Assembly (NCBI GenBank): GCA_000004695.1
Contig: CM000154.2
Span: forward strand, 3,328,001 to 3,392,000
Source of the DNA: Dictyostelium discoideum
Lineage: Eukaryota
Direction: 5' to 3'
DNA length: 64,000 nt
Numbering within the stretch: the stretch's first letter is position 1; every line of letters begins with the position of its first letter. Of this stretch, positions 8,512-64,000 are shown in pieces. The notes under the pieces were generated by a model, which saw nothing but the letters and a program-made list of their open reading frames with translations, had not been told where the DNA came from and made no database searches. Both the position numbers and the translations under genes were made by a program.

Positions 8512-8601
8512 TGCCCGAGCTCAGAATCGAACTGAGGACCCTCTGTTATCGCTTTAGTACTAAGTACAAGACAGATATAATAACCACTATACGACACGGG
8601 C
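8512..8601 (-). tRNA. Intron-containing tRNA gene, 90 nt with a 17-nt intron after position 37. The anticodon is TGT (Thr) under canonical folding; a GTA (Tyr) reading was considered and is disfavoured.
   Basis: Hand fold of GCCCGTGTCGTATAGTGGTTATTATATCTGTCTTGTAC[intron]AACAGAGGGTCCTCAGTTCGATTCTGAGCTCGGGCA. Acceptor stem 7 bp with one U-U mismatch at 6-67. D arm GTAT/AGTGGTTA/TTAT. Anticodon stem TCTGT/ACAGA. Loop CUUGUA+A. T arm CTCAG-TTCGATT-CTGAG, a good B box. The A box is TCGTATAGTGG. Confidence 0.8.
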
Positions 8602-12419: not shown

Positions 12420-15400
12420 ATGGAGTTACATGTTCAATTAAAACATAGTACTGACTGTTTCGTTTCACTTCCACCTAAAATAGTACATTCACTGTTATTA
12501 TTATCAGAAGTATGTATATTTTTATTTCAAAAAAAAAAAAAATATATCAAAATTAAAATCAAAATTAATTTTTTAATAATTTAAAAAAAAAAAAAAAAAA
12601 AAAAGAAACAATCAAAATCATTAGGTACATTAGGATTAGAAATAACATGGTATGATAAAATTAATAAAAAAGAGAATAAAGGATATGTTGGATGGGCAGG
12701 TGGATCAACAGATCCAAGATTCACAGATTCAATAGAGATGAGTCAAGAGATGGCACAATGTTTAGGTGGTATAAAGAATGAGCAAAAATTAAAACTAAAA
12801 GCATTAAATAATATTGAATTAGCTCATTCAGTTCAAGTTGAACCATTAACATCAGATGATTGGGAAATTATGGAAGTTCATCAACAATACCTAGAAGAAC
12901 AATTACTTAATCAAGTTAATATTTTATATAGTGGTCAAATCGTACCAATTTGGATTCATCATAAAACTATAATTAAATTAAAAGTTACTGAAACTTTACC
13001 AACACCAGTAGTTAAATTATCTTCAAATTCTGAAATTATAGTTGCACCAAAACCTAGAAATTTACCAACAACAACAACATCATCACAACAACAACAAATT
13101 TCAAAAGAAACTTTAAAACCAAGATTTTTACAAATTAAAGATTTTAAAATAGATTATAATAATAATAATACATTTATAAATGAAATTTATATAAATAAAG
13201 AGTTATTAAACCAATTTCAATGGAATATTGGTGATATTATAGAAATTTCAAAAGTTTCAAAAAATAATAATAAAAATAATAAAAAAGAAAAGAATAATAA
13301 TGGTGGTGATGAAGAAGAAGATGATGATGATAATGAAGAGTTTGACGATGATGATGATGATGATAATAATAATAATGAAGATGATACAAGTAAATTACAA
13401 AAACAATTAGATAATAAAAATAATAATAATAAGAAGAATAAGAAGAATAATAAAACAATTTATGCAAGAGTATTTATAAATGATAAATCAAATAATCAAC
13501 AAGTATTAATTCATAGAAATATTAGAACTATTGGTAATTTCTATATAAATACAATTGTTAGATTAAAATATACAACAAGTCATTCATTACCAATTTGTCC
13601 AATTGGTTCAATTTTAGTTAAACAAGTTATTTGGAAACAAAATTCATTATCAAATTTAATAAAACAACAATCATCACAAAAAATATATTCAGTTGAACAA
13701 ATTAAAGAACAAATTAAAGTTTGGTCAAATAATAATTTATCAAATAATCAAAGATATCCATTATTAAATGGTTCAATAGTTTCAATTAATTCAAATTTAG
13801 ATTTATCATTTAATTTTAATAATTTAACATCATCAATTATTCCTCCTACATCATCATCATCATCATCACCTTCAAATAATTTAGATTCTCAAAGATCAAA
13901 TAATAATAATAACAATATTAATAATGATCAATTAAATGATATAACTAATAATATGAATAATCCATATTTATCAAGTATTCAACAAATTGGTGATATTATG
14001 TCAAATTTAAATACTAATAATAATCAAAATAATCAAAATAATAATTCAAATAAATTAATGAATCAATTTCAAATGAATAATGGTATATTTATGTTAAGTT
14101 TAGAAATTTTATCAAATGATAAATTATTAAAGATTGAAAGTGGTGGTAATAATTCAATTGAAAAAAAGAAATCATTAGAGGATTATAATGAAATTGGTGA
14201 TAGATTATTTCAAAGAATTGGTGGTATGGAAAAACAAATTAAACAAGCTAAAGAGTTTTTATCATTATATATGTATAAAGATTTATCAGTAATACGTGAA
14301 CAATTAAATACACCAGGTGTTAATGGTATGATCATTGCAGGTAGTCATGGTAGTGGTAAATCGTTATTGGCAACTTCATTGGGTGGTTATTATTCAACAG
14401 ATTCAAGATCAAATGCTTTCATTATAAAATTAGATTGTAATCAATTAAAAGAATTAAAAGTTGAAAATATAAGAAAACAATTTAATAAATTATTTTATAA
14501 ATCTTGTAAAGAAAGTGGTAATACTTTATCAGCAACCACATCAACTAATACTACGCCACCACCAATAATAATAATTTTAGAATCATTAGATTTAATATTG
14601 GGTACACCAAATGATCAAGATCCAGGTTCAAAAATTAGATGTGAACAATTAGTATCACATATTAAATCATTATGTTTTAAATATCAAAATAGGTCAAGTC
14701 CAATTGTTATGATTGCAACTGTAATCTCATCACAATCATTATGTCAATCAATTCAAATACCAGAATTATTTGGATTAACAATCGAATTACAAGCACCAAC
14801 AAGAGAAGAACGTGTTGAAATACTTGAAAGATATTTAAAGTATCAAGGTAAACAATTAAAAGATCAACAATCATTAAATTTAATGAAATTCTCTGCTTCT
14901 ATGGAAGGTTATTTAGGTTGTGATGTTGAACAAATTGTTGATCGTTCAATACATTTATCTTCAATTAAAGAGATTGAAAATAATAATAATAATAACGATG
15001 ATAATGATGATGATAATATTATTGAATTTTCAATAATTGAAAAAGCAAAAGAAGGTTATACACCAATAACATTGAAAGGTATAAAATTACATAGTTCAGA
15101 GATTAAATGGCAAGATATTGGTGGATTGGATTCAGTTAGAGCAATGTTAAAGGAAACTATTGAATGGCCAACTAAATATCCAAAATTATTTCAATCATCA
15201 CCATTACGTTTAAGATCGGGTATTCTATTATATGGTCCAACTGGTTGTGGTAAAACTTTATTGGCATCTGCAATCGCCGGTGAATGTGGTTTAAATTTCA
15301 TCTCTGTAAAGGGACCGGAATTGTTGAATAAATATATTGGTTCATCCGAACAAGGCGTTAGAGATGTTTTCTCAAGAGCATCTTCTGCAAAACCTTGTGT

Positions 15401-16124
15401 TTTATTTTTCGATGAATTCGATAGTATTGCACCACGTAGAGGTCACGATAATTCTGGTGTCACTGATAGAGTGGTAAATCAATTCCTCACTCAATTGGAT
15501 GGTGTTGAAGGGTTAACTGGTGTTTATGTTTTGGCAGCAACTAGTAGACCTGATTTAATAGATCCTGCACTACTACGTCCTGGTAGATTAGATAAATCAT
15601 TATATTGTAATATACCAGAGTTTAATGAACGTTTAGATATTCTAACTTGTTTAAAGAGTAAAATGAATTTATCACCATCAATATCTCTTGAACAATTGTC
15701 AACAAATACTCAATATTACACTGGTGCTGATTTAAGAGCATTAATGTATAATGCTCAATTAAAATCAATTCATGAATGGATGAATCATTTAGAAGAAGAA
15801 AAGAAAAGAAAAAGAAAAGAAAAAGAAGATCAATCGAATAAAAACAGTTCTCAACAACAAGATGATTTTATTATATTTCAACCTAAAAATAATGATAATT
15901 CAATTTCAAAATCAAATTTAACATTTGAAGAAAAAACAAATCTCCAAAAACAAATTGATACTATTAAATCTCAATTTATAAATTCAAATACCTCTACTTT
16001 AAATAAATCAAATTTATCAAATGAACAACCACCATTAATAACTCAATCTCATATTGATTTGGCTTTGAAAGAATCTTCACCATCTATCTCTGAATCTGAA
16101 AGAAAAAAATATGAAAGAATGTAA
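12420..16124 (+). CDS. pex1: Peroxin-1 (PEX1) AAA+ ATPase, about 1202 aa, as join(12420..12509, 12606..16124).
   Basis: Exon 1 encodes MELHVQLKHSTDCFVSLPPKIVHSLLLLSE, matching the PEX1 N-domain DCF.HLP motif. The intron starts GTATGT at 12510 and ends AG at 12604-12605, in phase. Exon 2 matches the PEX1 N-domain (VQVEPLTSDDWEIMEVHQQYLEEQLL). D1 has a degenerate Walker A (GSHGSGKS). D2 has a canonical AAA domain (LLYGPTGCGKTLLASAIA ... VLFFDEFDSIAPRRG ... AATSRPDLIDPALLRPGRLD). Confidence 0.9.
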
Positions 16125-17166: not shown

Positions 17167-21018
<3,852 letters not shown>

Positions 21019-27011: not shown

Positions 27012-30747
<3,736 letters not shown>

Positions 30748-35654: not shown

Positions 35655-35690
35655 TGTGGGTGGGAATGGTGTGGTGGGTGGGGTATATAA
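35655..35690. promoter_or_regulatory. G-rich GT element GGGTGTGGGTGGGAATGGTGTGGTGGGTGGGG, a candidate GBF-type G-box, immediately followed by TATATAA.
   Basis: A striking G-rich island in a >2-kb A/T desert. The call is based on similarity to known Dictyostelium G-box/CAE half-sites (GTGTGGG), by inference. Confidence 0.35.
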
Positions 35691-35918
35691 TTAATAATAT
35701 TATTATTATTATGTTTTGTTGTAAATATGTTTCTCCAAATTGGGTGTGATTATATTAAATCTTTGATTTAGGTATACAAGTCAAAAATAAAATAAAAATA
35801 AAATAAAAATAAAAATAAAAATAAAATAAAAATAAAATAAATTATAAAATCAATTACAATAATTATTAATTATTAATTTGGGTGTGGTATTATAATCTAC
35901 TACAAATTATTATAATTA

Positions 35919-49249: not shown

Positions 49250-49418
49250 TTTTTTAATATTTGTTTTATTATGTGTTAAATTTTTATTTTTTATTATAAA
49301 AATATAAAATAAAAAAAAAAATAATAAAAAAAAAAAATAAAAAATAAAAAAAGGGTTGGTGGTGTGTTTAAAAAATTAATTTTATTTAATTTAAATAAAA
49401 GTTTTTTTTGATAGTTTA

Positions 49419-49575
<157 letters not shown>

Positions 49576-49582
49576 CAAAAAT

Positions 49583-50551
<969 letters not shown>

Positions 50552-50651
50552 TTTTTGATATTAAAATATATTAAATTTATAAAAATATAATTTTTAAAAA
50601 TTAAATGAATGTAATATTGATGAAAAAAAAAATAAAAAAAAAACTTCCCCC

Positions 50652-50665
50652 ACAAGTGGGGAAAA
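50652..50665. promoter_or_regulatory. Perfect 14-bp palindrome CCCCACAAGTGGGG, flanked by oligo-A, about 100 bp upstream of the ATG at 50551.
   Basis: The reverse complement is identical. A second related G/C element, CGTCCCCATCTTTAGTGGTGGG, lies at 50687-50708. A regulatory role is inferred from the upstream position. Confidence 0.3.
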
Positions 50666-50931
50666 AAAAAAAAAAAAAAAAAAAATCGTCCCCATCTTTA
50701 GTGGTGGGAAAAAAAAAAAAATTAAAAAAAAATAAATTTATTTTTTTCACAAAAAGAAATCAGTTAAAAATATCTCATTTTCTTTTTTTTTTTTAAAAAC
50801 AATTATAAATAACAAAATATAAATAAATAATAAAAAGTTCTAAATATTTAAATTTTAATTCTAATTTTTAAAAAATGGGTTTTAATAAATAAATTTAGTT
50901 ATTAATCCTGGTTTACCCAATTTCTCTTATT

Positions 50932-50989
<58 letters not shown>

Positions 50990-51594
50990 TTTATATGTTG
51001 TTTTGAAGCGTGGGTGTGTTACAAATAATTTTTTCAATAAATATTCAATTTAACACTACACTACCACAGTTGAAAAAAAATTCATTTCATATATATAAAA
51101 ACACTATTACCCCACTACCCCAAAACATTTTAATTGAAGCAAAATGTGTTCATATAGAACAAATAAATAGCCTTATTCAATGATAACCTAAATGTATTTC
51201 ATATTTATAAATAATAATGGAAATTTTTTTAATTTACAAAAAATTCAAAAAAAATCATATTTAATAAATAAAAAAATCATTGTTGGGGTTGGAATATACT
51301 ATTTAAATTGTTTTTTTTTTGTTATTTTTTTTTTCTCTACTTTACAAATTTATTTATATATATATTTATTAAATGAATCTTTTTTTTTTTTTAATATATT
51401 AATAAAAAATTGTACAACTAAAAATTAGTAATAATATTGGAAAAAAAAAAAATAATAATTGTAATAATATAATTTTTAAAACTACCAAACAATAATAATA
51501 TTGGGAAAAAAAAAAAACCAAAAAAAAAAAAACAAAAAAGGAAATAAAATCAAACAAAGATTTTTTATTAAATCAATAATTAAAAAAAAAAAAA

Positions 51595-54500
51595 ATGAAA
51601 TTATTATTATTGGCGCTTATTTTAGTGCTCAGTAATATTAATTTAATAAGTGGTAATGGTTTAGTTTGGCCACATCCAAGATTACCATGTAGCCCATATG
51701 ACGAAAGGGGTTGTATAAATACACAAAAATGTAGTAGTACTGATTGTGATTCATTTAAACGTAGAATGTAAATATTAAATTTATTTTTTTATTTTAATTT
51801 TTTATATTTCCTAAAAAAAAAAACAATTTGTTTATTAATTTTTTTAAAAAATAATTATTTTTAGATATTTTGATGTTGCTTATAATACAGCATTTACAAT
51901 TTATCAACATACAATTTTTAAATACTATTCTGCAAATTATTATAAAGTTGAGTTAATAGTTGGAGGTAAAGTTTATTTTATTCATAAATTTGGTCAATTT
52001 AGAGGTGATGATTGTGAATTTGATGAAATTATTCCAGCTTTTTATAAGAAAGTTCAATTTTTAGATTTATCAACACCAATTAAAGCAACAATTCAATTTT
52101 CATTTGATTTTTCATCACATCCAAAACATGCAAACATTTATTATTCCTGTATAGATGTTTGGTTATTCGACTCTGCATATTACAATTATTGCCCAACTAA
52201 TAGTGGTGGTGGAAGTGGTAATAGTGGTGGTAGTTGGTCAAGTGGTGGAAGTGGTAATAGTGGTGGTGGTTGGTCAAGTGGTGGAAGTGGTAATAGTGGT
52301 GGTAGTTGGTCAAGTGGTAATAGTGGTGGTCATTCTACAGGTGATTGCCCAACAAGTAGCGGAGGTTGGACATCTGGTAGTCACTCAAGTGGATCATGGT
52401 CATCAGGTGGTGGTAGTGGTTCATCATCAGGAGGTCAATCAAGTGGATCTTGGTCTTCAGGAGGTGGTTCATCTTCAGGAGGTCATTCAAGTGGATCTTG
52501 GTCTTCAGGAGGTGGTTCATCTGCAGGAGGTGGTTCATCTTCAGGAAGTCATTCAAGTGGATCTTGGTCAAGTGGTGGCTCATCTTCAGGAGGTCAATCA
52601 AGTGGATCTTGGTCTTCAGGAGGTGGTTCATCTTCGGGAGGTCAATCAAGTGGATCTTGGTCTTCAGGAGGTGGTTCATCTTCAGGAAGTCATTCAAGTG
52701 GATCTTGGTCAAGTGGTGGCTCATCTTCAGGAAGTCATTCAAGTGGATCTTGGTCATCAGGTGGTAGCTCATCATCAAGTGGAAACAGCGGATGGATGAC
52801 TGCTTCTGGGGGTAATACTGGTGGAAATACTGGTGGAAATACTGGTGGAAATACCGGTGGCCAATCAAGTGGAAACAGCGGATGGATGACTGCTTCTGGT
52901 GGTAATACTGGTGGTAATACTGGTGGAAATACCGGTGGTCAATCAAGTGGAAACAGCGGATGGATGACTGCTTCTGGTGGTAATACTGGTGGAAATACTG
53001 GTGGAAATACCGGTGGCCAATCAAGTGGAAGCTCTTCATCAGGTGGCAATAGTGGTTGGTTAACATCTTCTGGCAGTAATAGTGGAAGTTCTTCGTCAGG
53101 TAGTAATAGTGGTTGGTTAACATCTTCTGGTAATAGTGTAAGTTCTTCATCAGGTGGTAATAGTGGCTGGTTAACATCTTCTGGTGGTAATAGCGGAGGC
53201 AATAGTGGAAGTTCTTCATCAGGTGGCAATAGTGGTTGGTTAACATCTTCAGGTGGTAACAGTGGTGGTTCCTCATCTTCAGGCAGCAATAGTGGTGCCT
53301 CATCTTCAGGTGACAATACTGGAGGTAATAGCGGTTGGTTGACATCATCTGGTGGTAATACTGGAGGTAATAGTGGTGCTGCAACCGGAGGAAATAGTGG
53401 AGGTAACAGTGGTGCCTCATCTTCAGGAGGTAATAGTGGCGGTGCTTCATCATCTGGTGGCAATACTGGAGGTAATAGCGGTTGGTTGACATCATCTGGT
53501 GGTAATACTGGAGGTAATAGTGGTGCTGCAACCGGAGGAAATAGTGGAGGTAACAGTGGTGCCTCATCTTCAGGAGGTAATAGTGGTTGGTTGACCGGCG
53601 GTGTTACTGGTGGCAATAGTGGAGGTGCTACTGGAGGTAATAGCGGTGGTGCTACTGGAGGTAATAGTGGAGGTGCTACTGGAGGAAATAGCGGTGGTGC
53701 TACTGGAGGCAATAGCGGCGGTGCTTCATCATCTGGTGGCAATAGTGGAGGTGCTACAGGAGGTAATAGCGGTGGTGCTACTGGAGGCAATAGCGGTGGT
53801 GCTACTGGAGGTAATAGCGGTGGTGCTACTGGAGGCAATAGTGGAGGTGCTACAGGTGGTAACAGTGGAGGTGCTACTGGAGGAAATAGCGGCGGTGCTT
53901 CATCATCTGGTGGCAATACTGGAGGTAATAGCGGCGGTGCTACTGGAGGTAATAGCGGCGGTGCTACTGGAGGCAATAGTGGAGGTGCTACAGGTGGTAA
54001 CAGTGGAGGTGCTACTGGAGGAAATAGTGGAGGTAACAGTGGTGCCTCATCTTCAGGAGGTAATAGCGGTTGGTTAACAGGTGGTGCTACTGGTGGTAAT
54101 AGTGGAGGTGCTACTGGAGGAAATAGTGGCGCTGCAACCGGAGGAAATAGTGGTGCTACTGGTGGTAATAGTGGAGGAAATAGTGGCGCTGCAACCGGAG
54201 GAAATATTGGAGGTGCTTCAAGTGGTTCCAGTTCTTCAGGAGGTAATAGCGGTTGGTTAACAGGAGGCGCTACTGGAGGTAATAGTGGCGGTGCTACTGG
54301 AGGTAATAGTGGCGGTGCTACTGGAGGTAATAGTGGCGGTGCTACTGGAGGTAATAGTGGAGGTGCTACTGGAGGTAATAGTGGAGGTGCTACTGGTGGT
54401 AATAGTGGTGCTGCAACTGGAGCAAATAGTGGTGCTGCAACTGGAGCAAATAGTGGCGCTGCAACTGGAGCAAATAGTGGTGCTGCAACTGGTGCAAATA

Positions 54501-55123
54501 GTGGAAACAATGCCGCTGTAACTGGTGCTGCAAATGGAAATAATGGCGCTGCAGCTGGAGCAAATAGTGGTGCCGCAACTGCTGCAAATAGTGGTGCCGC
54601 AACTGCTGCAAATAGTGGTGCCGCAACTGCTGCAAATAGAGGAAACAATGCCGCTGCAACTGGTGCTGCAAATGGAAATAATGGCGCTGCAGCTGGAGCA
54701 AATAGTGGTGCCGCAACTGCTGCAAATAGTGGTGCTGCAAATAGTGGTGCTGCAACTGCTGCAAATAGTGGTGCTGCAGCTGGAGCAAATAGTGGTGCTG
54801 CAACTGCTGCAAATAGTGGCGCTGCAACTGCTGCAAGTGGTGGAAATGGTGCAAGTGGTGCTGCAAACCCTGGTTCAATAGTAACTCCAAATGATCAAAA
54901 TGTTTCTCCATTATCGAACTCTGATGCTGCAGCAACCGCAGCATCAACTACAGGCAGAAACCCAAGAAATCCAACAAGTAGAGCTCCAACGGTCACACCA
55001 ACGCCAACCTCTTCAGCTGAAGAACCAGCTGCTGGTGGCGAAGATTCAAGTGCAATCTCCAAATATAGTATTCAATCATTTGGTATCTTTGTTTTATCAA
55101 TGATAATATATTTAGTAATTTAA
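51595..55123 (+). CDS. Very large (about 1143 aa) secreted, Gly/Ser/Asn/Ala/Thr-repeat cell-surface protein with a C-terminal GPI-type hydrophobic tail, as join(51595..51767, 51865..55123).
   Basis: Exon 1 MKLLLLALILVLSNINLISG is a signal peptide, ending ..KRR+at at a GTAAAT donor at 51768. The intron ends ..TTTTTAG at 51863-51864. Exon 2 starts in phase and encodes a ~110-aa Cys-containing N-domain (IYFDVAYNTAFTIYQ...CIDVWLFDSAYYNYCPT). Repeat zones then follow: SGSWSSGG units, three exact 72-bp units (NSGWMTASGGNTGGNTGGNTGGQSSG), many GGNSGGATGG 30-bp units and an ANSGAATAANSGAAT zone. The tail is PTSSAEEPAAGGEDSSAISKYSIQSFGIFVLSMIIYLVI*. The track ORF 52796.. is only the portion after the first Met in frame. 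Confidence 0.75.
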
Positions 55124-55268: not shown

Positions 55269-57061
55269 TCACCATTTAACTTTATTTAATAAATCTTGAA
55301 CAAATTGATCGCAATCACCTAAATAAACATAATCAAATTCGTGAGGTTGAGCAACCAACTCACGATTAATTAATATTTGAGGTATTTGTTTATCAACTAT
55401 ATCGGGTAATAAAGACACAGGTTGGACTTGTAATGATGAACCCATAACAATTAGTAAATCAATATCTTTTACATCTTTGAGTACACATTGATCGAATCGG
55501 TCAGGTAGATTTTCACCAAAGAAAACAATATCGGGTTTCATGAATGATTGACCATCATTACATTGTTGACACAAGGGTATTTCCATTTTCATGATGGTAT
55601 CACGAATGGTGGTACCATCGACAGTTAATTTACAAGTGATACAAGTTGCAGTTGAGAAACTACCATGACAATTGACCAATTTCTCTCTATCAATACCTGC
55701 AACATGTTCCAATGTATCGATGTTTTGAGTGTAATTTCTAAGTAGTTTACCTTTTTCATCCAAAAGTTTTATAAAGGAATGAGTTGGTGATGGTTTATGA
55801 TTACCAGGGAAGATCTCTTTTGCAAATTCAAAGAAAGGTAAAGGATTTGCACGTAAGTAATGAATATCAAACAATGATTCTGGTCTTGGTAAATTATATT
55901 TCTTTTCAATAGTTTCGTAAACGCCACCTTTTGATCTAAAATCTGGAATACCACATGAAACTGATACACCAGCACCAGTTATAATTACAATGTTTTTACT
56001 CGATTCAAATAATTGACAAACCTTTTCAAATGTTGATAAATCCAATGTTGCTATCTTTTTTCTATAGGGTCTTGCCAATGTATTATACTTTAAATAATTT
56101 AAAAATAAATTTACTGCCACTTTTTTCCTTGTTAAAAATGCCGTTATAATTTCCCATGCATCATCATCTTTCTCTAATTCCAATTTAAATCCAATATCTT
56201 TGGTAAACTCAATTGGATCAATCCCCAATGATTTCTTTTCTTGAATATGTTTATATATAAAACTACGTGCAACCAATTCAATATTTTCTTCTTCTTCTTC
56301 TCCTTCTTCTTCTTTTGAATTTCCAACATTATTTCCAATTCTTTGAATTTCATCATCAACTTCATCTTTATTATTATTTAAAATATCCAATAATATTGTT
56401 TCATTTATTTGTGTTTTTGTTGTTGTTGTTGTTGTTGTTGATGTTGATGTTGTTGTGGTTGATGAAGTGTTTGTTATTGAAGTGCTGGTTTCTGTATTTA
56501 CTAATTTTTTTTGAATTTTCTTAATTTCATTAATATTATCTAAATGATCTTCATCATCTAATAATTCATCTTCATTTTCATACCCATACTCATATTCACT
56601 ACTTTCATCATCTTCATAGTCATCACTTATTTGTTCTTCATCGGAATATCCTTCACCAACAAATTCATACTTTCTTCCTTTTTTATCCAATTTATTAATT
56701 AATTTAGTATCAATTTCAACATCTAAATCTTCATCTTCATCTACTTCTTGTAATTGTTCTAAACTATTTATAGATTTTCTAAAAATAAAAAAAATAAAAA
56801 AAAGTGGAAATAAAAAAAAATAAAAAAAAAAGGTTAGATTATTTTTTTTATTTTTTTATTTTTTTATTTTTTTTATTTTTTCATTTTCACTTTTTTTTTT
56901 TTTATTTTATTTTTTTTTTTTTTCACGAGGGATGATTTTTACAATTTTTTTAAGGGTGTATTATCAGAAGGGATTTCTTTATTTATTTTATTATTATTAT
57001 TTTTATTTTGATTATTTTGAATTTCGTTTAGTTCATTATTTTCTAAAGATCTCTTATTCAT
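55269..57061 (-). CDS. Sir2-family NAD-dependent protein deacetylase (class I, SIRT1-like), about 542 aa, as complement(join(55269..56778, 56943..57061)).
   Basis: The catalytic core has GAGVSVSCGIPDFRS, the NAD-binding motif. It also has the QNIDTLE and HGSF motifs and Zn-binding CxxC...CxxC (CITCKL / CQQCNDG). The track 'M' at 56690 is a TTG. Upstream exon 1 MNKRSLENNELNEIQNNQNKNNNNKINKEIPSDNTPLKK+tt ends at a GTAAAA donor at 56942. A 164-nt intron ends ..ATTTTTAG at 56779-56780. The junction gives L, then KSINSLEQLQEVDEDED... Confidence 0.85.
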
Positions 57062-62165: not shown

Positions 62166-64000
62166 TTAATCTTTCATTGAATTCATTGAAATTGACATTC
62201 TTTTCATTGATTTCTTCTCTTTTAATTTTCTATAATAAAAAATTGAAGATGCTGCTACTAATGTTGAACCTCCAACTACTGATACTACAACTATTACAGG
62301 TAATTTCCATTTATTTGAATCACAATTTGTATCTTCATCATCATCTTCTGGTCTTAATAATTGACCAAATGAAGGATCAATTATAGTTTTGCTTTTAAAA
62401 TGAGGTGATATAACACCTGTTCTTAATGTGAATTTTGAATTATCAATATCATCTGTTGAAGCACCAATGAAATTATAAATTTTACTATTATTCTGTTTAT
62501 CAATTTGTATTAATTCAGTTTGAGTAATTCTATCATCAATGATTGCACGTGATGCAAATTTACCAGTGAGAGAAGTTGAAAATGTTTGAATTTGATATTG
62601 ATTTTTTAAATATTTTGATTCTGTATCTATTGATTCACAATTATAAAATTCGGATGAATCAGTTTTTGATTTAAAAATTGTAACTAAATAATTTAATTCA
62701 CTTGAAAATTTCCAACCTAAAATAGTAGCTTGATATTTAATTGAATTTTCTGGCATGTATAATGTTTCACCAGCAAATTCGATTTCACCTTGATCAGAGA
62801 AATAATGAATTATCAATTCAAAAATTGTAGAATTATCACCTTGTTTATTAAAACTACCACTATAGAAATTTGATGAGTTTGATAAACCTGTTCTATTTGT
62901 CCATTCAATTTCTGATAATGATAAAAATCTAACTGGATTATCAGTAATATCCATTTCAACTAAATGAGTGATTGCAATTGTATAATTAATTTTTGAACCT
63001 GGGAATGTAGTTGAACCATTTTCATCAATAATTGGTGGTTCAGGTTGTGGTGGGTATTTTTCACTATCGATTGAACAATCTTGACCTCTCCAACCTTGAT
63101 AACATATACATTTTGGTAATTTCTTATTACAATCACCATTTCCTGAACAATTGTTTAATAGCTCACAATCATATAATGTTGAATAAACTAAACAATCATT
63201 CTCTCCACTGAGATCTGCGGAAATAACTTTTACATTTAAACCTTTTCTTTCGCTTGGTAATGGTATTGTTGATTGGTATTTACATTTTATAGTTGTTTGA
63301 TCGACGATTGAAACATTTTCACATTCTTGATCTTCAATGAAAACACTAGTATAATCAATTTTGAAATTTAAAACTGAAATTAAAAGATCAATTGGTTCAT
63401 TTAAATAAACTTGTGATAATACTTTTAATACAATTGGAGATTCATACTCTGATTGTAAAGAGTTTGATATGAGAGATGATTTTGAAATTGCAATAATTTC
63501 AAATTTTCCATAACCTGGTTGAATATCACATTCATATTCTGTACCCACAATCAAGGCTAAACAATTCAATAAGAATCCAATTGGAGAATTAATTGATGGA
63601 GTTTTAAAAGTATATTGAAATTGTAATGCTACAGCGTTATTGTTTGAATCTTCTTCAAATAAATAATTACCACTAATTGTTATTTTACTTGTACTATTAA
63701 ATGAAGATGCTATTGGTTTAATACTGAATAGAATTGGATAAATATCTAATAATAAAGAATTTGATTTCTGTGAATCAACAATAACATAGATATCACCATT
63801 TCTTGATTTACTTGTTAATAAATTAAATTCAATTCTATTACTATCGATTGATTTTATAGTTGGTTCATAACTTCCAAAAATTAGAGTTGTCAAAGTTTTA
63901 CTTAAATTTCTTCCAATGATTACAACTAAATCTTCAACTTGTGTAACTGATAATAACTCTGGTTTAAAGAATGAATAGATTACTTTATTTGATTTTAATT
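62166..64000 (-). CDS. Type I membrane protein with a large extracellular region including an EGF-like module, one TM helix and a short cytoplasmic tail. The 5' end lies beyond the window end.
   Basis: The ORF is open to position 64000; the track 'M' at 63893 is a TTG. The EGF-like module is CSGNGDCNKKLPKCICYQGWRGQDCS. The TM helix is LPVIVVVSVVGGSTLVAASSIFYY, followed by RKLKEKKSMKRMSISMNSMKD*. There are many N-glycosylation sequons. Confidence 0.7.
   Translation of the reverse strand, partial: LKSNKVIYSFFKPELLSVTQVEDLVVIIGRNLSKTLTTLIFGSYEPTIKSIDSNRIEFNLLTSKSRNGDIYVIVDSQKSNSLLLDIYPILFSIKPIASSFNSTSKITISGNYLFEEDSNNNAVALQFQYTFKTPSINSPIGFLLNCLALIVGTEYECDIQPGYGKFEIIAISKSSLISNSLQSEYESPIVLKVLSQVYLNEPIDLLISVLNFKIDYTSVFIEDQECENVSIVDQTTIKCKYQSTIPLPSERKGLNVKVISADLSGENDCLVYSTLYDCELLNNCSGNGDCNKKLPKCICYQGWRGQDCSIDSEKYPPQPEPPIIDENGSTTFPGSKINYTIAITHLVEMDITDNPVRFLSLSEIEWTNRTGLSNSSNFYSGSFNKQGDNSTIFELIIHYFSDQGEIEFAGETLYMPENSIKYQATILGWKFSSELNYLVTIFKSKTDSSEFYNCESIDTESKYLKNQYQIQTFSTSLTGKFASRAIIDDRITQTELIQIDKQNNSKIYNFIGASTDDIDNSKFTLRTGVISPHFKSKTIIDPSFGQLLRPEDDDEDTNCDSNKWKLPVIVVVSVVGGSTLVAASSIFYYRKLKEKKSMKRMSISMNSMKD

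Follow-up and report, generated by a model that had tools for sequence, protein, structure and literature searches.

Does the long, GC-rich tandem array in a 64,000-nucleotide stretch of the Dictyostelium discoideum genome belong to a functional gene and, if so, is the repetitive part of its product maintained by selection or left to drift? The stretch (GenBank assembly GCA_000004695.1, contig CM000154.2, forward-strand positions 3,328,001 to 3,392,000; here referred to as the window) is otherwise 75 to 85% A+T, with the GC fraction reaching 0.47 to 0.49 at 52 to 55 kb versus 0.17 to 0.25 in the flanks, and it is in this GC island that Tandem Repeats Finder reports a dense in-frame tandem array (46 rows, scores up to 679). 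An earlier note on this DNA, made by a model from the letters alone, had proposed a giant surface protein with a glycosylphosphatidylinositol (GPI)-type tail. Judging from sequence comparison, positions 51595 to 55123 on the plus strand are a genuine two-exon D. discoideum gene encoding a secretory protein of 1143 amino acids (aa). With a probability of about 0.6, we read this product as a modular surface protein, in which a functional head, a selected, uncharged repeat chain, and a GPI anchor would together form a tether/coat or adhesion molecule.

The gene is made up of the following parts:
51595..51767 (+), exon 1, 173 nucleotides (nt), encoding the predicted signal peptide and, with 4 Cys, the initial 37 residues of the head domain.
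51768..51864 (+), intron, 97 nt, GT..AG (GTAAAT...TTTTAG), AT-rich and of the canonical Dictyostelium type.
51865..55123 (+), exon 2, including the stop codon TAA at 55121-55123.

Since the raw reading frame from 51595 meets a stop codon directly after 51767, removal of the intron is required. An interruption of the frame, which had been named as an argument against the proposed protein, is therefore present in the unspliced sequence, yet splicing of the 97-nt intron restores a single open reading frame (ORF) of 1143 codons. Nor is the region a non-coding minisatellite without a spliced signal-peptide exon, the other outcome that had been held against a protein, since exon 1 splices in frame. 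Both ends of the gene, as first proposed, coincide exactly with those of a gene called at the corresponding place in another, independent assembly of D. discoideum (GCA_054883475.1, contig L001), the product of which has exactly 1143 residues. Between the two assemblies, 3529 of 3529 nt of the gene are identical, while the surrounding 18.7 kb is 99.70% identical, with 14 gaps; a collapse of the array during assembly, to which it had been considered prone, is not evident when two assemblies yield the same 3529-bp gene between flanks that differ by 0.3%. The gene is already annotated in public assemblies, as encoding a hypothetical protein.

With sirtuin orthologs as anchors, the syntenic locus was taken from five further genomes, in all of which the gene is positioned tail-to-tail with the sirtuin gene. 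The lengths of the products are as follows:
D. discoideum (AX4-like, present window), 1143 aa.
Second genome labelled D. discoideum, 989 aa.
D. cf. discoideum, 1193 aa.
D. dimigraforme, 1088 aa.
D. citrinum, 1094 aa.
D. firmibasis, 933 aa.

Exon 1 measures 173 nt in six of six orthologs, and the single intron (70 to 343 nt) has the same position throughout. Identity of the head among orthologs ranges from 88 to 99%, with a ratio of nonsynonymous to synonymous substitution rates (dN/dS) of 0.02 to 0.21, and the C-terminal 79 to 91 aa, hydrophobic tail included, are conserved among the six. The reading frame of the repeat region is kept over 684 to 935 aa in all six genomes, with every zone varying in length. 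In D. purpureum and Polysphondylium violaceum, the genes beside the sirtuin gene were found to differ, in a synteny look-up at that locus only. As far as these genomes can tell, the gene family extends at least across the D. discoideum species complex. The length polymorphism that had been predicted is thus borne out between lineages, where array length varies (products of 933 to 1193 aa); strict within-species variation is not established, however, since the second genome labelled D. discoideum lies at a synonymous divergence (dS) of ~0.1 from the target.

The nonrepetitive ends of the protein are encoded by the following segments:
51595..51654 (+), predicted signal peptide, residues 1-20 (MKLLLLALILVLSNINLISG), with predicted cleavage after ISG.
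51655..52201 (+, intron inside), head domain, residues 21-170, ~150 aa, with 7 Cys and abundant beta-strand-forming residues.
54860..55045 (+), conserved nonrepetitive C-terminal region, as seen in the six-ortholog alignment; the whole nonrepetitive C terminus spans residues 1057-1143.
54947-55015 (+), Pro/Thr stalk (TTGRNPRNPTSRAPTVTPTPTSS), ~23 residues (1086-1108), the sole Pro/Thr-rich stretch.
55046..55120 (+), GPI-attachment-type signal: S-S-A (from S1119), an 8-aa polar spacer (ISKYSIQS), and a 14-aa hydrophobic tail (FGIFVLSMIIYLVI).

All of the parts listed in the earlier note (signal peptide, Cys-containing head, succession of zones, Thr/Pro stalk, and hydrophobic tail) were recovered, with the head measuring ~150 aa (residues 21 to 170) instead of ~110 aa. 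The signal peptide, conserved in the six orthologs, reads MK, then LLLLALILVL, then SNINLISG, with a mean Kyte-Doolittle value above 2 over residues 1 to 13, and by rule it is of the cleavable N-terminal type that characterizes GPI-anchored proteins. At the other end, the hydrophobic tail forms the very C terminus, with the stop codon next to it; a small attachment site, a polar spacer within the usual 5 to 10 aa, and a hydrophobic tail within the usual 12 to 20 aa amount, again by rule, to a GPI C-terminal signal, and this signal is conserved in six of six orthologs. From this layout, we infer GPI attachment of the protein.

Aromatic residues (Tyr, Phe, and Trp) abound in the head. An eighth Cys (residue 219), conserved in all six orthologs, lies outside the head, on the far side of the first repeat zone; this zone is flanked by two CP[TS] motifs (Cys167 in NYCPTN and Cys219 in GDCPTS), and a disulfide between these two Cys residues might close it into a loop. 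No homolog of the head was found with the single sequence among 5.8 billion proteins, with a profile of five orthologs in a large protein library, or, for the exon-2 part, when 1.84 billion representatives were scanned in full with HMMER, and no relative was found among PDB sequences or soil metagenome contigs. Likewise, the head matched none of the carbohydrate-binding module (CBM) family profiles and none of the PA14, Flo, or Als domains in Pfam, an exact look-up of a 775-aa internal ORF gave no match, and neither the head nor the repeat DNA was found to have a paralog elsewhere in the 64-kb window. One Pfam candidate, PF11912 (CfaA_B_C), scored below the gathering threshold with the full N terminus (E = 0.079, 13.4 bits versus a cut-off of 28.6). 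Since this match was gone (E ≤ 10) in three orthologs once the signal peptide was left out, we ruled out membership in the family and consider the hit a signal-peptide artefact. On sequence grounds, a lineage-restricted, Cys-stabilized domain of unassigned fold is the most fitting description of the head.

Between the head and the C-terminal region lies a low-complexity repeat region of 886 aa (residues 171 to 1056), somewhat shorter than the ~1,000 residues estimated before. Its zones and units are arranged as follows:
52202..52345 (+), zone 1, residues 171-218, three 36-bp (12-aa) units (SGGSGNSGGSWS).
52346..52789 (+), zone 2, residues 219-366, SGSWSSGG(G)SSSGG(Q/H)S units with a period of 45-48 bp and a 141-bp higher-order repeat.
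52790..54262 (+), zone 3, residues 367-857, 12 GNSGW(L/M)T motifs with lengthening GGN(S/T)/GGNSGGAT spacers.
52818-53030 (+; period mapped at 52774-53030), 78-bp units in zone 3, 2.7 copies, copies 1 and 2 being 96% identical.
53024-53277 (+), 54-57-bp units in zone 3, from Tandem Repeats Finder/direct-repeat analysis.
53265-53586 (+), 147-bp duplication in zone 3, from the same analysis.
From 53596 (+), 24-bp array of GGNSGGAT.
54263..54859 (+), zone 4, residues 858-1056, Trp-free GGNSGGAT grading into Ala-rich GANSGAAT/ANSGAATA.

Tandem Repeats Finder resolved zone 1 as 3.1 copies of a period of 36 (97% matches, 52206-52318); in zone 2, where a Trp recurs every 14 to 22 residues, the 48-bp period and its 141-bp higher-order repeat were mapped at 52416-52777. 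Several unit lengths had to be revised. What had been described as three identical 72-bp units is a set of 78-bp units (self-identity at 52800-53030 is 0.24 at offset 72 versus 0.88 at offset 78), and the units reported as 30-bp GGNSGGATGG repeats have a period of 24 bp (self-identity at 53600-54400 is 0.34 at offset 30 versus 0.72 at offset 24). The duplicated blocks of ~140 bp do exist and hold the longest exact repeat, of 126 bp (53314-53439 and 53461-53586), but the true period of the duplication is 147 bp. The Ala-rich zone is present as well, with a 24-bp period and a 138-bp higher-order repeat (54397-54843). Every repeat period is divisible by 3.

The composition of the repeat region (Gly, 36%; Ser plus Thr, 34%; Asn, ~10%; a single Pro among 886 residues) bears on the class to which the protein belongs. 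The suggested label of a mucin or glycine-rich coat protein holds in so far as a surface protein with a GPI-type signal is concerned, but "mucin" is only loosely apt: the repeats are dominated by Gly instead of Pro, Thr, and Ser, and since Pro is virtually missing, the region is not a classical mucin (Pro/Thr/Ser [PTS]) domain. The autocorrelation of Gly has its maxima at lags 4, 8, and 12 (GG-XX) and not at lag 3, with a longest (G-X-X)n run of 3, so that collagen and polyproline-II bundle designs, including the Gly-X-X arrangement of the snow-flea antifreeze type, with its Gly at every third residue, are excluded. Finally, we rejected a GW/WG "Ago-hook" of the GW182 type, in which the GW repeats are cytoplasmic or nuclear, since an extracellular position of the repeats follows from the signal peptide and the GPI-type tail.

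The repeat units differ from one another in a manner that is informative about selection. Contrary to the earlier description, few of the DNA units are perfect: GGNSGGAT, present 20 times, is encoded by 11 DNA variants separated by synonymous changes alone. Between adjacent units at 53596-53899, mismatches amount to 10.8, 7.5, and 42.6% at codon positions 1, 2, and 3, respectively, and in the 78-bp array, all five mismatches at the 78-bp offset fall on third codon positions. The synonymous divergence and the third-position excess indicate that the array is partly old, with its peptide under purifying selection. Onto this partly old array, recent duplications have been added; the recent expansion by slippage that had been deduced is thus real in part, but most units have diverged synonymously with the peptide kept.

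A similar picture emerges from the orthologs. The dominant unit differs by lineage (GGNSGGAT, GGNSGGAS, GGNSGAGS, or GNGASGAAT). The order of zones is constant in the six genomes, the final 180 to 300 residues of the repeat region are Trp-free, and, in all six, Ser declines from 0.4 to 0.5 at the N-terminal side to ~0.1 at the C-terminal side, Ala rises from 0 to 0.23 to 0.45, and Trp falls from 6 to 7% to 0. Per repeat region of 684 to 935 aa, only 1 to 5 charged residues were counted in the six orthologs. Trp is present 18 to 28 times, and Tyr and Phe are lacking in five of the six (D. dimigraforme has 3 Phe). The motif GNSGW(L/M)T occurs in 8 to 13 copies per genome, within an 11-mer that is nearly invariant in 65 copies; in D. 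firmibasis, the copies of the GWLT motif are homogenized (0.096 within the genome versus 0.19 to 0.25 between genomes). The N-glycosylation sequon N-X-S/T is found zero to one time in the repeat region of each ortholog, Asn there preceding S-G or T-G, and this avoidance holds across the differing unit types of all six lineages.

Taken as a surface protein of this kind, the product would enter the secretory pathway upon cleavage of its signal peptide, and its C-terminal signal would be exchanged for a GPI anchor, which would leave the Pro/Thr stalk beside the membrane. From there, a nearly uncharged and presumably intrinsically disordered Gly/Ser/Asn/Ala/Thr chain of ~890 residues would extend outward, bearing the putatively disulfide-stabilized ~150-aa head at its tip. 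The distal half of the chain would carry regularly spaced Trp "stickers" (SGSW, then GNSGWLT), and the proximal part would be Trp-free and increasingly Ala-rich. The array gains and loses units of 24 to 147 bp in frame through replication slippage or unequal exchange, while selection retains the motifs of the peptide, the succession of zones, the chain's lack of charge, and the scarcity of N-glycosylation sequons. The head and the Trp motifs would be displayed far from the membrane, probably in multicellular development. Since Pro/Thr stalks in Dictyostelium undergo O-glycosylation and Ser-Gly-rich sequences phosphoglycosylation, we predict that the chain is decorated, probably with heavy O-glycosylation. 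A surface tether/coat or adhesion function appears most likely.

With regard to the timing of expression, the upstream region offers one lead. The intergenic region at 50576-51594 (~1 kb), shared with the divergent neighbor, is a poorly conserved AT-rich spacer except for GC-containing islands, and it contains the following element:
51010..51018 (+; -585), GTGGGTGTG, a match to the GBF response element consensus (given in PMC2257962); a candidate developmental promoter element and a weak lead.

This is the sole exact copy of GTGGGTGTG in the window, and a KGKGKGK match is present at -500 to -590 in six of six orthologous upstream regions. The six-genome alignment contains further conserved upstream blocks, namely the CA-rich ACACTACCACAG and CCCCACTACCCC as well as AAATCATTGT and AATTGTACAA; a further block, close to the distal end of the spacer (TTCACCAAC..GTGGGG / CCCCATCAC..GTGGTGGG), is probably part of the divergent neighbor. 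Elsewhere in the window, an intergenic segment with strong positive GC skew (35656-35886) holds a G-box-like cluster, with two copies each of GTGGGTGGG and TTGGGTGTG and 10 KGKGKGK matches in that kilobase, and may be the GBF-regulated promoter of a neighboring gene.

Several points weigh against a functional head on a selected, GPI-anchored chain. Signal-peptide cleavage and GPI attachment were assessed by rule, without a trained predictor (SignalP, big-PI, PredGPI, or NetGPI). Scala et al. (PMC3460934) concluded that amino acid repeats in D. discoideum evolve largely by mutation and drift and are largely nonfunctional. The depletion of sequons relative to a shuffle of the AX4 repeat region (~34 expected, minimum of 19 in 1,000 shuffles), in itself an argument for selection, is inflated as a statistic since the repeat units are not independent. 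An AF2 model of the whole of exon 2 had predicted local distance difference test (pLDDT) values of 21 to 27 and no secondary structure across the repeats, with the C-terminal tail as its sole helix, but this was a single-sequence run, so that the low confidence is a weak indication of disorder. The absence of homologs of the head is similarly weak as a negative result, because the exact 1143-aa protein is itself missing from the 15-billion-protein collection searched, as is the D. firmibasis ortholog, even with genes called on the contigs and the neighboring sirtuin present; a low-complexity filter or a hold-out may account for this. The head has neither a homolog nor a confident model. Finally, with KGKGKGK occurring at a density of 0.77 per kb window-wide, the upstream match alone is not significant and is a mere hint of postaggregative expression.

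The best surviving alternative, which strikes us as possible but rather unlikely, is that the protein is a component of the extracellular matrix or wall that, after GPI-mediated delivery, is set free or becomes cross-linked into the cellulose-containing slime sheath, the stalk tube, or the spore coat, with the Trp motifs and the head binding cellulose or other glycans. Fungal GPI cell-wall proteins are indeed released or cross-linked into the wall, but GPI-to-wall transfer is not known to be established in Dictyostelium. The conserved, regularly spaced Trp residues, nearly the only aromatic in the repeat region, and the aromatic-rich head are in line with such binding, and the candidate GBF element would fit postaggregative expression; no carbohydrate-binding family of Pfam matched, however.

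Quite improbable, in our judgment, is the alternative that only the head and the anchor are functional, the ~890-aa repeats being the product of drift in a slippage-prone genome and at most a spacer of arbitrary sequence. It is consistent with lengths and unit types that vary freely between lineages, with exact repeats of up to 126 bp as a sign of ongoing duplication, with the general conclusion of Scala et al. (PMC3460934), and with the lack of structure in the AF2 model. The excess of third-position mismatches (42.6% versus 7.5 to 10.8%) speaks against drift, however, as do a zone order and composition gradients kept in six genomes, the near-invariance of GNSGWLT, the near-absence of charge and sequons in every lineage despite differing units, and a frame maintained over 684 to 935 aa in six of six genomes.

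That the C-terminal hydrophobic segment is a true membrane span, making this a type I membrane protein, seems very unlikely to us: a strongly hydrophobic run, modeled as helical, does close the protein, but it is just ~14 residues long, without cytoplasmic or basic residues after it, and the polar spacer and S-S-A upstream have the layout of a classical GPI signal. The chance that the locus is a non-coding minisatellite, or that the real gene is antisense (ORFs of 410 and 569 aa), is negligible: several open frames do run through the GC-rich repeats on either strand (other-frame and minus-strand ORFs of 105 to 569 aa overlap the array at 52155-54947), but these are by-products of stop-free repeats that are not conserved as genes. 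Only the plus frame, on the strand that also carries the annotation, links the signal peptide to the head, which is under purifying selection, and to the conserved tail; this frame is kept by six orthologs, contains periods that are all multiples of 3, and has its mismatch excess on third positions.

A GPI-anchored surface protein with a selected repeat chain thus remains our preferred reading. A more far-reaching version of it, which we entertain only as a rather doubtful speculation, is that of a graded "sticker-and-spacer" polymer instead of a passive spacer, in which the 8 to 13 GNSGWLT motifs and the SGSW motifs would act as multivalent Trp contacts close to the distal head, homotypic or to cellulose/glycans, and the Trp-free, Ala-rich base as an inert stand-off, yielding a tunable cohesive coat that would help cells to cohere with one another or with the matrix in the multicellular stage, with a head of novel fold. 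If the preferred reading is true, one and the same protein would combine a labile layer (repeat number and unit type) with a constrained one (Trp motifs, gradient, and absence of charge and sequons), which would bear on the debate whether the abundant amino acid repeats of D. discoideum are junk. In any case, the gene model is now fixed, with a repeat length on which two assemblies agree, and an orphan head domain has been flagged.

The surroundings of the gene were also inspected. The adjoining ORF at 55269-56690 (-), tail-to-tail with the target gene, encodes a protein that is 100% identical to a 542-aa D. discoideum sirtuin, which we take to be Sir2D, whose length it fits. This match marks the window as nuclear DNA of D. 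discoideum, so that ORF lists made in the bacterial manner must allow for introns. For the target gene itself, literature searches yielded no identification; judging from the nearby range of identifiers (sir2D, DPF, and Puf118 = DDB_G0289987), it might correspond to DDB_G0289901 (Swiss-Prot "Uncharacterized transmembrane protein"). The paper on Sir2D carries a gene identifier in the DDB_G028996x range, consistent with the neighboring sirtuin being Sir2D. Further downstream, a gene at 62166-63893 (-) runs off the end of the window and encodes, on contig L001 (207-4913), a protein of 1508 aa that combines TIG, teneurin-type EGF, and ComC supersandwich domains. This might be DPF/p150 (DDB_G0289949), a 1483-aa protein with a small EGF-type domain and a shed ectodomain (PMC6889452). 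The window additionally contains a tRNA-Thr gene (anticodon TGT; 8512-8601, -) and a gene for a PEX1-type AAA ATPase with a PEX-1N and two AAA domains (12738-16124, +). Triplet-repeat tracts at 17525-17715, 28134-28305, 49415-49573, and 50316-50475 cross-match one another and a tract in L001; they are typical D. discoideum poly-Asn/poly-Thr coding repeats, with the ORF at 49871-50551 having a run of ~40 Asn.

How does the protein compare to known systems? PsA (prespore antigen) and csA/gp80 are GPI-anchored developmental surface glycoproteins of Dictyostelium. Likened by layout and not by direct sequence comparison, they share with the target a signal peptide, a globular N-terminal domain, a Pro/Thr-rich stalk beside the anchor (APTVTPTPTSS and putatively O-glycosylated in the target), and a C-terminal lipid-anchor signal; unlike them, the target has an additional, uncharged repeat region of ~890 aa between head and stalk, and, its head having no Pfam, PDB, or library match, homology to the PsA and csA heads is not demonstrated. 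The CfaA_B_C proteins (PF11912; Dictyostelium counting factor-associated proteins) are, like the target, secreted Dictyostelium proteins. Fungal GPI adhesins and cell-wall proteins of the Flo, Als, Epa, and Sed1 type have the same head-spacer-GPI organization, with central in-frame tandem repeats whose number shifts through slippage or recombination and governs the reach of the head, but the target is without homology to their sequences or domains, and its spacer is rich in Gly, Asn, and Ala, with Trp motifs, and not in Ser, Thr, and Pro. With mucins and other PTS proteins, it has in common an extended extracellular repeat region that varies in length and is probably O-glycosylated (34% Ser plus Thr in the target), whereas its repeats are Gly-dominated (36%), have Pro at 1 of 886 positions, and leave just ~23 residues Pro/Thr-rich. 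The flexible Gly/Ser chain with regularly spaced aromatics also recalls the "glycine-loop" domains of loricrin and keratin tails and the secreted glycine-rich proteins of plants, with Gly/Ser segments that loop out between aromatics able to associate, as well as sticker-spacer polymers, a likeness that does not imply homology; in contrast to these, the aromatic of the target is exclusively Trp in fixed motifs (the three Phe of D. dimigraforme aside), and its chain is extracellular, putatively GPI-linked, and graded. The class of architecture is therefore well known, and no new type of biological system is involved; the novelty lies in describing this family and the conserved constraints within its variable repeats.

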